From Escherichia coli (GTDB lineage: Bacteria > Pseudomonadota > Gammaproteobacteria > Enterobacterales > Enterobacteriaceae): 64,000 nt of DNA. A program made the translations under genes and the position numbers. Below are positions 5,754 to 42,842 of this stretch, in pieces (position 1 is the first letter of the stretch; each line of letters opens with the position of its first letter). Location: assembly GCF_045037415.1 (NCBI RefSeq), contig NZ_CP173438.1, one strand, 5' to 3'. The notes beneath the pieces were generated by a model, which was not told where the DNA came from, did no database searches, and saw only the letters and a list, made by a program, of their open reading frames with translations.

Positions 5754-6020
<267 letters not shown>

Positions 6021-8227: not shown

Positions 8228-8321
8228 TGCCTTCGCTCAGGGTGCCGGTCTGGCACCCTGACTTGCAACTCCCGCCGAAATCCTGCAAAGTCTGCCTGCA
8301 AGTCTGACAGGGCAACTATTT

Positions 8322-8891
8322 ATGAAACGACTCATTGTAGGCATCAGCGGTGCCAGCGGCGCGATTTATGGCGTGCGTTTATTACAGGTTCTGCGCGATG
8401 TCACAGATATCGAAACGCATCTGGTAATGAGCCAGGCGGCGCGCCAGACCTTATCCCTCGAAACGGATTTTTCCCTGCGCGAAGTGCAGGCGTTAGCTGA
8501 TGTGACACACGATGCGCGCGATATTGCTGCCAGCATTTCTTCCGGTTCTTTCCAGACGTTGGGGATGGTGATTTTACCCTGTTCAATCAAAACCCTGTCC
8601 GGCATTGTCCATAGCTATACTGATGGCTTACTGACCCGTGCGGCAGATGTGGTGCTGAAAGAGCGTCGCCCGTTGGTGCTCTGCGTGCGTGAAACGCCAC
8701 TGCACTTAGGCCATCTGCGTTTAATGACTCAGGCGGCAGAAATCGGTGCGGTGATTATGCCTCCCGTTCCGGCGTTTTATCATCGCCCACAATCCCTTGA
8801 TGATGTGATAAATCAGACGGTTAATCGTGTTCTTGACCAGTTTGCGGTAACCCTTCCTGAAGATCTCTTTGCCCGCTGGCAGGGCGCATAA
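8322..8891 (+). CDS. ubiX: flavin prenyltransferase UbiX
   Basis: 189-aa ORF, UbiX/Pad1 family (MKRLIVGISGASGA). Confidence 0.9.
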   Translation: MKRLIVGISGASGAIYGVRLLQVLRDVTDIETHLVMSQAARQTLSLETDFSLREVQALADVTHDARDIAASISSGSFQTLGMVILPCSIKTLSGIVHSYTDGLLTRAADVVLKERRPLVLCVRETPLHLGHLRLMTQAAEIGAVIMPPVPAFYHRPQSLDDVINQTVNRVLDQFAVTLPEDLFARWQGA

Positions 8892-8899
8892 CTCCGCTG

Positions 8900-8922
8900 T
8901 TGCCCTGTTTCAGGGCAATTTT
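8900..8922 (+). terminator. intrinsic terminator after ubiX
   Basis: TTGCCCTG (8900-8907) / CAGGGCAA (8911-8918), then TTTT (8919-8922). Confidence 0.55.
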
Positions 8923-9072
8923 GCAACCGCGATCAAATCCTCGACATTTTGTTTCTGCCATTCAATCGAAACGCTGCGATTCAACCGCTATACCTGCTAT
9001 CTTCAACTTTAGGACAATAATGCAACTTCTTATTAACATATTTAACGTTGAATGTTACTGCTGTCGTCAAGA

Positions 9073-9088
9073 TGGCATAAGACCTGCA
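9073..9088 (+). promoter_or_regulatory. sigma-54 (-24/-12) promoter candidate for argT
   Basis: TGGCAT-N5-CTGCA: GG and GC at the canonical -24/-12 spacing, ~70 nt upstream of argT ATG; argT is known to be nitrogen (NtrC) regulated. Confidence 0.5.
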
Positions 9089-9156
9089 TGAAAGAGCCTG
9101 CAAACACACAACACAATACACAACATAAAAAAGCCATTTTCACTTGAGGGTTATGT

Positions 9157-9939
9157 ATGAAGAAGTCGATTCTCGCTCTGTCTTTGTTAGTCGGTCTCTC
9201 CGCAGCGGCTTCCAGCTATGCGGCGCTACCGGAGACGGTACGTATCGGAACCGATACCACCTACGCACCGTTCTCATCGAAAGATGCCAAAGGTGACTTT
9301 GTTGGCTTTGATATCGATCTCGGTAACGAGATGTGCAAACGGATGCAGGTGAAATGTACCTGGGTTGCCAGCGACTTTGACGCGCTGATCCCCTCACTGA
9401 AAGCGAAAAAAATCGACGCCATTATTTCGTCGCTCTCCATTACCGATAAACGTCAGCAGGAGATTGCTTTCTCCGACAAGCTGTACGCCGCAGATTCTCG
9501 TTTGATTGCCGCCAAAGGTTCACCGATTCAGCCAACGCTGGATTCACTGAAAGGTAAACATGTTGGTGTGCTGCAGGGATCAACCCAGGAAGCTTACGCT
9601 AACGAGACCTGGCGTAGCAAAGGCGTGGATGTGGTGGCCTATGCCAACCAGGATTTAGTCTATTCCGATCTGGCTGCAGGACGTCTGGATGCTGCGTTAC
9701 AAGATGAAGTTGCTGCCAGCGAAGGTTTCCTTAAGCAACCCGCCGGTAAAGATTTCGCCTTTGCAGGCCCATCAGTGAAAGACAAAAAATACTTCGGTGA
9801 CGGCACCGGTGTAGGGCTACGTAAAGATGATGCGGAACTGACGGCTGCGTTTAATAAGGCGCTTGGCGAGCTGCGTCAGGACGGCACCTACGACAAGATG
9901 GCGAAAAAGTATTTTGACTTTAATGTCTACGGTGACTGA
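9157..9939 (+). CDS. argT: lysine/arginine/ornithine periplasmic binding protein
   Basis: 260-aa ORF with signal peptide, paralogous to downstream hisJ; synteny. Confidence 0.9.
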
Positions 9940-10159
9940 TACGTCGCAGGGAAGCTGTACCTGATGGAATGATCATCATGGTGCACGCCAGGTTTGTTGC
10001 ACTATCGTGGTGCATTGAAATGCATACTTAAGCATTTTTAATGAAAAATAATACGTCTAGCGGGGCGGGATATTTTGCCTTGATGGTCAATTTTATGGCA
10101 CGATAAGTGTAACAAACCTGTAAATATTCCCGATAAAAAGACTGTCAGTTGAGGACATT

Positions 10160-10942
10160 ATGAAAAAACTGGTGCTATCGCTCTCTCTGGTTCTGGCCTT
10201 CTCCAGCGCAACTGCAGCATTTGCTGCGATTCCGCAAAACATCCGCATCGGTACCGATCCGACCTATGCGCCATTTGAATCAAAAAATTCACAAGGTGAA
10301 CTGGTTGGCTTCGATATCGATCTGGCCAAGGAGTTGTGCAAACGCATCAATACGCAATGTACGTTTGTCGAAAACCCACTGGATGCGTTAATCCCGTCCT
10401 TAAAAGCGAAGAAGATTGACGCCATCATGTCATCGCTTTCCATTACGGAAAAACGTCAGCAAGAAATAGCCTTCACCGACAAACTGTACGCAGCCGATTC
10501 TCGTCTGGTGGTGGCGAAAAATTCCGACATTCAGCCGACAGTCGAATCGCTGAAAGGCAAACGGGTAGGCGTATTGCAGGGCACCACCCAGGAGACGTTC
10601 GGTAACGAACACTGGGCACCAAAAGGCATTGAAATCGTTTCTTATCAGGGGCAGGACAACATTTATTCTGACCTGACTGCCGGACGTATTGATGCCGCGT
10701 TCCAGGATGAGGTCGCAGCCAGCGAAGGTTTCCTCAAACAACCCGTCGGTAAAGATTACAAATTCGGTGGCCCGTCTGTTAAAGATGAAAAACTGTTTGG
10801 CGTAGGGACCGGCATGGGCCTGCGTAAAGAAGATAACGAACTGCGCGAGGCACTGAACAAAGCCTTTGCCGAAATGCGCGCTGACGGTACTTACGAGAAA
10901 TTAGCGAAAAAGTACTTCGATTTTGATGTTTATGGTGGTTAA
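10160..10942 (+). CDS. hisJ: histidine periplasmic binding protein
   Basis: 260-aa ORF with signal peptide, high similarity to argT; first gene of hisJQMP. Confidence 0.9.
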
Positions 10943-10966
10943 TCGCCATCGGTGAAAGAAAGCCCG

Positions 10967-10990
10967 CTCCCTTCGGGTAACCGGAGGGAG
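10967..10990 (+). other. intercistronic stem-loop between hisJ and hisQ
   Basis: CTCCCTTCGG / CCGGAGGGAG 10-bp stem (one G-U) with GTAA tetraloop; no U-tract, so likely an mRNA-stabilising or processing structure rather than a terminator. Confidence 0.45.
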
Positions 10991-11031
10991 ACAAGAGGCG
11001 GTAATTCACCACACACGACAGGACAGGCAGC

Positions 11032-11718
11032 ATGTTGTATGGGTTTTCAAGTGTTATTTTACAGGGTGCGCTCGTCACGCTGGAGCTGGCTATCAGCTCT
11101 GTAGTGCTCGCTGTAATCATCGGTTTAATTGGCGCTGGCGGTAAGCTCTCACAAAATCGGCTTTCGGGCCTTATTTTCGAAGGGTACACCACGCTGATTC
11201 GAGGCGTGCCGGATTTAGTATTGATGCTGCTGATTTTCTACGGTTTGCAGATTGCGCTAAACACGGTGACGGAGGCGATGGGCGTCGGGCAGATTGATAT
11301 TGATCCGATGGTCGCAGGTATTATCACTCTCGGTTTTATCTACGGTGCTTATTTTACCGAAACGTTTCGTGGCGCGTTTATGGCAGTGCCGAAAGGACAT
11401 ATAGAGGCGGCGACGGCGTTCGGTTTTACTCGTGGGCAAGTGTTTCGGCGGATCATGTTTCCGGCGATGATGCGTTACGCCCTGCCAGGCATTGGCAACA
11501 ACTGGCAGGTGATCCTCAAATCTACCGCACTGGTTTCGTTACTCGGCCTGGAAGATGTGGTCAAAGCCACGCAGCTGGCAGGCAAAAGTACCTGGGAACC
11601 GTTCTATTTCGCTATCGTCTGCGGCGTGATTTATCTTGTTTTCACCACCGTTTCCAATGGTGTGCTGCTGTTCCTTGAGCGCCGCTACTCCGTGGGTGTG
11701 AAGAGGGCTGACCTGTGA
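11032..11718 (+). CDS. hisQ: histidine ABC transporter permease
   Basis: 228-aa membrane ORF; synteny. Confidence 0.9.
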   Translation: MLYGFSSVILQGALVTLELAISSVVLAVIIGLIGAGGKLSQNRLSGLIFEGYTTLIRGVPDLVLMLLIFYGLQIALNTVTEAMGVGQIDIDPMVAGIITLGFIYGAYFTETFRGAFMAVPKGHIEAATAFGFTRGQVFRRIMFPAMMRYALPGIGNNWQVILKSTALVSLLGLEDVVKATQLAGKSTWEPFYFAIVCGVIYLVFTTVSNGVLLFLERRYSVGVKRADL

Positions 11719-42804: not shown

Positions 42805-42842
42805 GTAGGTCGGATAAGCCGTCTTCGCGGCGCATCCGACAC
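42805..42842. repeat. REP palindromic element inside the nuo operon (nuoL-nuoM spacer)
   Basis: GTAGGTCGGATAAGCCGTCTTCGCGGCGCATCCGACAC, same family as the REP units at 5754-6020. Confidence 0.75.

Follow-up and report, generated by a model that had tools for sequence, protein, structure and literature searches.

The hisJ-hisQ spacer of Salmonella, which we take to be the locus where REP sequences were first described, holds a multi-copy REP doublet within 181-182 nt. This REP pair (BIME) is the subject of reports by Higgins et al. (1982, Nature 298:760) and Stern et al. (1988, Mol Microbiol 2:141). A second close counterpart, the REP stabiliser between malE and malF of E. coli, is described (Newbury et al. 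1987, as summarised by Dar and Sorek 2018) as an intercistronic stem-loop that blocks 3' exonucleases after an endonucleolytic cut, in an operon where the binding-protein gene likewise comes first and the membrane genes after. The malE-malF element consists of REP sequences and is backed there by mutational proof, whereas the hisJ-hisQ spacer of E. coli carries a unique hairpin for which the evidence is positional and kinetic. Where Salmonella has the doublet, E. coli has one 24-nt hairpin, present as a single copy and lacking the REP consensus, in a spacer of 89 nt; the two elements have in common the operon, the position between the same flanking sequences, an excess of hisJ over hisQ mRNA and a 3' end past the last stem.

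The E. coli hairpin and its hisJ-stabilising role are already known from the work of Dar and Sorek (2018, PLoS Genet 14:e1007354, PMC5927463), who used rifampicin decay and Term-seq 3' ends in E. coli BW25113 and whose main text places the histidine system among the ABC transporters with stabilised substrate-binding subunit mRNA. In their S3 Table the hisJ/hisQ pair is decay-regulated with hisJ as the stabilised gene, at a half-life ratio of 3.72, which is given without replicate SD and is just 1.39 when recomputed with Moffitt 2016 data, and at a steady-state mRNA ratio of 5.83 ± 2.81. Their S6 Table ('E. coli 3' protective structures') places a 3' end at BW25113 position 2419431 and gives the 60 bases upstream of it (GGCTAATCGCC...CCGGAGGGAGACAAGA), drawn with a 10-bp/4-nt hairpin of -19.9 kcal/mol. 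For Salmonella SL1344, the S5 Table reports a ratio of hisJ over hisQ mRNA of 4.77 ± 0.47 and a 3' end just past the downstream REP. The S6 structure is the same element as the one described here, with identical sequence and fold and a 3' end 6 nt past the stem; as an entry in a genome-wide table it carries no individual analysis, no cross-family covariation and no remark that the Salmonella counterpart is a non-homologous REP. The sole modestly new point made here is evolutionary and comes from the comparison of spacers: the Salmonella REP appears to have replaced a hairpin that all other sampled genera carry.

Geometry and folding of the hisJ-hisQ hairpin

The window analysed is a single strand of 64,000 nt from Escherichia coli (GCF_045037415.1, contig NZ_CP173438.1), in which the ORF list and the K-12 RefSeq annotation give the gene order purF, ubiX, argT, hisJ, hisQ, hisM, hisP around the site. 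The hairpin lies within the hisJQMP polycistronic operon, 3' of the stabilised cistron hisJ (Table 1). It reads CTCCCTTCGG-GTAA-CCGGAGGGAG, with the arms at 10967-10976 (5') and 10981-10990 (3') forming a stem of 10 bp, including one G·U pair (U10973·G10984), closed by a GUAA loop at 10977-10980. The stem begins 24 nt past the TAA stop of hisJ, which ends at 10942, and finishes 41 nt before the hisQ ATG at 11032. The original prediction had placed a 10-bp stem with a GTAA loop at this site, 25 nt after hisJ and 42 nt before hisQ; the sequence and its folding confirm the former, the measured distances match the latter, and folding of the spacer returned the same strong hairpin. A 351-nt piece across the junction is present in 5425 of 5426 complete E. 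coli genomes at an identity of at least 95%. The hairpin sequence is single in the window, allowing up to three mismatches, and has a median of one place per genome (5018-5425 E. coli genomes).

Table 1. Features of the hisJ-hisQ junction (window coordinates).
Feature	Position	Strand	Evidence
hisJ CDS, periplasmic histidine-binding protein, stabilised cistron	10160..10942	+	ORF list, RefSeq of the identical K-12 locus, Dar & Sorek S3
Short outer helix around the hairpin	10962..10999	+	spacer MFE, RNAalifold consensus, pairing in relatives
Inner hairpin, proposed barrier to 3'-to-5' exonucleases	10967..10990	+	sequence, fold, Dar & Sorek S6, covariation
Published Term-seq 3' end of stable hisJ transcript	10996..10996	+	Dar & Sorek S6 sequence mapped to the window
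CA-rich single-stranded tract CACCACACACGACA, probable GcvB sRNA R1 seed target	11007..11020	+	sequence; limits inferred
hisQ ribosome-binding region and start codon	11018..11034	+	ACAGG 11018-11022, ATG 11032-11034, columns of 59-sequence alignment
hisQ CDS, first membrane component, less stable downstream segment	11032..11718	+	ORF list, annotation, Dar & Sorek S3

Folded alone, the hairpin has a free energy of -18.6 kcal/mol with 92% of the ensemble in the 10-bp structure, while its shuffles average -7.9 ± 2.5 kcal/mol (z = -4.2) and none of 200 was as stable. For the whole hisJ-hisQ spacer the fold energy is -33.2 kcal/mol (z = -3.3). The + strand of the whole window has 11 perfect hairpins at or below -17 kcal/mol, where shuffled sequence has about 1.15. 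Enclosing the hairpin is an outer helix of 4 bp, in which 10962-10965 pairs with 10995-10999 (G10962-C10999, C10963-G10998, C10964-G10997 and C10965-G10995), with an A-rich 3' internal loop, ACAA, and a bulged A10996.

Several identities for the element were considered and rejected. An intrinsic (Rho-independent) terminator is likewise a G+C-rich stem-loop at a gene end, but the hisJ-hisQ hairpin has no U-tract and the downstream hisQMP genes need read-through; this identity is ruled out. The 8 bases 3' of the stem (ACAAGAGG; tail ACAAGAGGCG) contain no T, and the hairpin is absent from the terminator-like list of a scan that does report a terminator-like hairpin 3' of hisP at 13219-13242, which bears out the earlier statement that it is not a canonical terminator. 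The REP consensus (CTTATCMGGCCTAC and GCCKGATG) was searched for at 10943-11031 and not found, the motif count being 0 in the E. coli spacer against 1-4 in the REP-type spacers of Salmonella and Citrobacter; with the consensus absent and a single copy instead of many, REP/BIME identity is ruled out under the classical multi-copy definition, the broad RepRanger definition being one under which any extragenic palindrome could be a candidate. Elsewhere in the window, the same consensus search located three tandem REP pairs 91 bp apart, a BIME-like array, at 5776-5999 upstream of purF, and a single REP at 42805-42818.

An Rfam scan of 8800-13600 with E-values up to 10 gave a sole match, at 10006 (E = 8.4), which was judged to be chance. 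RNase III usually needs a stem about twice the length of one of 10 bp, and with a stem of just 10 bp the hairpin was rejected as an RNase III substrate. Two hidden ORFs across the spacer (10779-11192 minus and 10952-11104 plus) were also rejected, because the spacer ranges from 57 to 100 nt in length without a multiple-of-three pattern and RefSeq annotates nothing in it.

Placed on the window, the 60-nt sequence of the S6 Table of Dar and Sorek covers 10937-10996 with one mismatch, and the 3' end of the stable hisJ RNA lies 6 nt past the stem. The original prediction proposed that a non-REP hairpin protects the upstream hisJ mRNA in E. coli in the role known from Salmonella. Transcript decay and abundance are unequal across the junction (ratios of 3.72 and 5.83, respectively) and, together with the 3' end at 10996, support protection; the Salmonella ratio of 4.77 and the 3' end after its REP support the likeness of role. 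In the Term-seq data of Adams et al. (2021), with table coordinates calibrated on neighbouring entries (window + MG1655 = 2436958), the hisJ/hisQ junction has no curated 3' end in LB or M63, which may reflect low expression or the thresholds of that study; hisJ and hisQ are absent from both its Term-seq and its Rho tables.

Other structures of this kind occur in the window. The menC-menE protective structure of the Dar and Sorek S6 Table is an exact match to a hairpin at 57177-57201 (+) with its 3' end at 57205, and the folX-yfcH structure from the same table matches 14118-14168 (-) with 2 mismatches, inside the yfcH ORF (13371-14264, minus). The purF-ubiX spacer has a 10-bp hairpin at 8237-8261 (+) of -19.5 kcal/mol without a T-run, and the 'primary' purF 3' end of Adams et al. 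2021 (MG1655 2428685) corresponds to 8273, 12 nt past it; this looks like another protective, non-terminator hairpin.

Conservation of the stem and variation of the loop

To sample the Enterobacteriaceae, one genome was taken per species, and all hisJ-hisQ spacers were extracted from 80 loci encoding close HisQ relatives. A single perfect hairpin of 7-15 bp and -14 to -25 kcal/mol is present in 59 of the 59 distinct non-REP spacers, starting 8-27 nt past the hisJ stop and followed by at most three T in the next 8 nt; in 40 of them it was unmatched by any of 200 shuffles, the worst case being 5 of 200. The 5' arm of the stem reads CTCCCTTCGG in Escherichia, CTCCCTCCTGC in four Citrobacter species, CCCCTCCC in Enterobacter, Kosakonia, Leclercia and Lelliottia, CCCATCGC... 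in Kluyvera and CCATCGCGCG... in Klebsiella and Raoultella, and loops outside Escherichia range from 3 to 12 nt.

In a single alignment of the 59 spacers, long and short classes fail to align in the hairpin region, and the two were therefore analysed apart. The sole spacer motif conserved across both is the ACAGG ahead of the hisQ start codon: A106, C107, G109 and G110 are invariant, and A108 is conserved in at least 90% of sequences; the start-codon columns A120-G122 are invariant too. In the 18 sequences of the short class, the hairpin is predicted by RNAalifold; changes on both sides occur in 8 of its 11 pairs, 95.5% of cells are paired (31-54% in slid registers) and none of 500 shuffles reaches the covariation score. 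The long class comprises 37 sequences, among them the window, which scores 76 bits, and all of them could be aligned with a covariance model; here 93.8% of cells are paired, 6 of 13 pairs carry compensatory changes and none of 500 shuffles reaches the score; this alignment is fitted to the model, so its covariation counts are approximate, and the covariation statistics of both classes rest on related sequences. In the MAFFT and covariance-model alignments, the Escherichia/Citrobacter stem is one base out of register with the Enterobacter stem. Eight cells at columns 25/52 are 'unpaired' because of this shift, and the long-class count therefore understates pairing. Taken together, the alignments point to a stem conserved through compensatory substitutions across lineages. 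The outer helix is paired in 100% of cells, as GCC/GGC in Escherichia and Citrobacter and as GUG/CAC in the Enterobacter group; because just these two sequence states occur, the covariation evidence for it is thin.

The strand on which the structure is more stable was compared in the same 59 spacers. The hairpin is steadier on the sense strand in 36, equal in 12 and weaker in 11. In E. coli it has -18.6 kcal/mol on the sense strand and -13.1 kcal/mol on the antisense strand, where an A·C mismatch takes the place of the U·G pair and weakens it. The whole-spacer MFE favours the antisense strand in 43 of 59 spacers, which was judged a composition effect of the unstructured CA-rich sense tract with no bearing on the hairpin.

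Within E. coli, the spacer is identical in 4399 of 5425 genomes. A 48-nt core is identical in 4515 of them and differs by one base in 503, and about 407 lack a 28-nt exact word, as would be expected from a central (loop) change. Six variant genomes were sampled, with A10980T in the loop in four and C10963T in the outer helix in two, the latter keeping the outer-helix pair as G·U; the stem is untouched in all six. Among the sampled Escherichia genomes the stem is constant, except that E. albertii differs at the loop-closing pair. The loop is GUAA in the window, GUAU in a common E. coli variant, GCUA in a divergent genome labelled E. coli (L002) and AAGAGC in E. albertii. The tetraloop named in the original prediction is thus not a conserved feature: the loop varies while the stem holds, the GNRA tetraloop is therefore incidental, and its maintenance by selection is ruled out by the variation within Escherichia and its relatives.

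Some loci depart from the common arrangement. In one strain alone, E. coli TUM14697 (locus L082; NZ_CP128888.1 1523600-1525600), the hisJ-hisQ hairpin is interrupted by an IS4-like ISEc13 of about 1.55 kb, whose 10-bp target duplication, TCGGGTAACC, is equivalent to window 10973-10982 and which parts hisJ from hisQMP. The hairpin starts 23-25 nt past the hisJ stop in Escherichia and Enterobacter. In the short-spacer genera Klebsiella, Kluyvera, Raoultella and Superficieibacter (loci L044, L046, L049, L052, L058, L072-L074 and L077-L079) it starts only 8-14 nt past the stop, close enough for a terminating ribosome to reach it. The spacer of Raoultella ornithinolytica (L045) is 1116 nt long, probably through an insertion. 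A locus labelled 'C. freundii M21' (L054) has a 289-nt spacer and a his locus that groups with Atlantibacter and not with Citrobacter, pointing to a wrong label or to horizontal transfer.

Relation to the Salmonella REP pair

When hairpin-type and REP-type spacers were aligned, both types proved to contain GATAAAGCCC and AAAAGAGGC as flanks and to agree over the entire hisQ-proximal part. Between these flanks lies the hairpin in Escherichia and four Citrobacter species, and one or two REPs plus extra inverted-repeat sequence in Salmonella and most Citrobacter. The comparison with the Salmonella spacer, suggested with the original prediction, thus places the REP pair exactly where the hairpin stands, and the spacer alignment contains no trace of the hairpin between the flanks in the REP-type spacers of Salmonella and most Citrobacter. 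In a neighbour-joining tree of hisQ-hisM DNA, a single locus with midpoint rooting, REP-type spacers are found solely inside the Salmonella/Citrobacter clade, interspersed with CTCCCT-type hairpins, and every other sampled genus has a plain hairpin. From its distribution the hairpin looks like the ancestral state and the Salmonella REP pair like the replacement, rather than the reverse. We lean, by a modest degree, towards the fuller account in which the plain hairpin would be the ancestral protective element, kept by compensatory evolution, and the Salmonella REP doublet a later, non-homologous replacement.

Proposed mechanism and alternative readings

The hairpin is very probably a 3' protective structure, an exonuclease barrier in the hisJQMP (argT-hisJQMP) mRNA that lets hisJ outlive hisQMP. 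Structure beyond chance, conservation, the position of the 3' end, and unequal half-life and abundance speak for it. Like a malE-malF-type stabiliser, the hairpin combines its position with a stable non-terminator stem, a 3' end, hisJ longevity and abundance, and compensatory conservation. Polymerase would read through the hairpin because it has no U-tract. An endonuclease, probably RNase E, would then cut somewhere downstream, a candidate site being the AU-rich patch GGUAAUUC at 11000-11007, and 3'-to-5' exonucleases (PNPase, RNase II) would trim the message as far as the hairpin, coming to a halt about 6 nt short of the stem. A translatable hisJ mRNA would remain and outlive the hisQMP part, and a single promoter would thus be expected to give periplasmic binding protein in excess of membrane transporter. 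We infer which nucleases act, where the first cut falls and that the hairpin is the cause of hisJ stability, the last from its position and by analogy.

The CA-rich tract past the hairpin is a conserved feature of Escherichia, Citrobacter and Salmonella. Miyakoshi et al. (2021) list hisQ as a verified GcvB target and showed that the R1 seed of GcvB mediates repression of an intraoperonic hisJ-hisQ reporter. The tract at 11007-11020 is probably the target of GcvB R1 through which hisQ is repressed, with the limits of the paired bases inferred. The stable hisJ species ending at 10996 does not contain the tract, and GcvB would therefore act on the read-through transcript. Pairing of GcvB with the tract may promote cutting and, as a matter of speculation, trigger the cut that feeds the exonucleases. 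Another CA-rich tract, AAACACACAACACAATACACAACATAAAAAAG, occurs in the argT 5' UTR at 9103-9133 (+), and its end coincides with an 'orphan' Term-seq 3' end of very high abundance (MG1655 2427825, window 9133), 24 nt before the argT ATG; this may be a stable 5'-UTR fragment carrying a GcvB target.

Among the alternatives, the one that survives best, although unlikely, is a transcription attenuator, in which the hairpin, alone or with Rho, stops some polymerases before hisQ, and which may act alongside stabilisation, a combination that has been proposed for REP325. The hisJ/hisQ ratio is larger for steady-state mRNA (5.8) than for half-life (3.7), which gives room for attenuation or another contribution, but the two overlap within error. 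Dar and Sorek found that decay does not fully account for abundance in about a quarter of operons, and they also left out gene pairs split by intrinsic terminators or described Rho termination (PMC5927463). A C-rich, G-poor tract follows the hairpin, and a 2026 preprint, in its account of equivalently placed REP elements, describes them as able to be both partial Rho-dependent terminators and stabilisers. Against this, the hairpin has no T-run and is not called by the terminator scan, and the bicyclomycin data of Adams et al. (2021) place Rho regions inside hisP and argT and none at the hisJ-hisQ junction.

It is improbable that the hairpin acts instead as a translational organiser, exposing or masking the hisQ ribosome-binding site or the GcvB target, together with outer pairings, and so setting hisQ translation. 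The E. coli spacer MFE does pair GGUGAA (10951-10956) with UUCACC (11005-11010), overlapping the CA-rich tract; GcvB does regulate hisQ via the spacer in the experiments of Miyakoshi et al. (2021), and invariance within the spacer is limited to the bases adjoining the hisQ start. However, the consensus fold of 37 spacers contains nothing beyond the hairpin and its short outer helix, and the ribosome-binding site takes part in no long-range pairing; 3' of the hairpin the sense strand forms less structure than the antisense strand, as one would expect if the ribosome-binding site is open, and the 3' end at 10996 is left unexplained. A DNA-level element, in which the palindrome would bind protein, form a cruciform or attract mobile elements and have no function as RNA, is scarcely credible: BIMEs, which stand in the same place in Salmonella, are reported (PMC2817692) to bind DNA proteins, and an IS4-like element is inserted in the palindrome of one E. 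coli strain, but the sense strand tolerates G·U pairs, the antisense stem is weaker in most species, the stem sequence is replaced wholesale between genera with pairing kept, as would suit an RNA structure but not a DNA site recognised by its sequence, the loop varies freely in sequence and size, and the element is single-copy.

As a 3' protective structure, the hairpin is a conserved example of how one promoter can yield unequal amounts of ABC importer subunits, with more of the soluble binding protein and less of the membrane complex. Its function at hisJ-hisQ was documented before, so the finding of the hairpin itself brings no new biology. The comparative addition is of modest value: unrelated stems in different genera and the REP pair of Salmonella serve one job, which indicates that selection sees stability and position, and not sequence, loop type or REP identity. 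If the replacement of a plain hairpin by REP is true, the mRNA-stabilising 'function' of REP at this site would be a legacy of the site and not something that the element supplied, and there may be a tendency for REP/REPIN elements to settle where a stable stem-loop is already needed.
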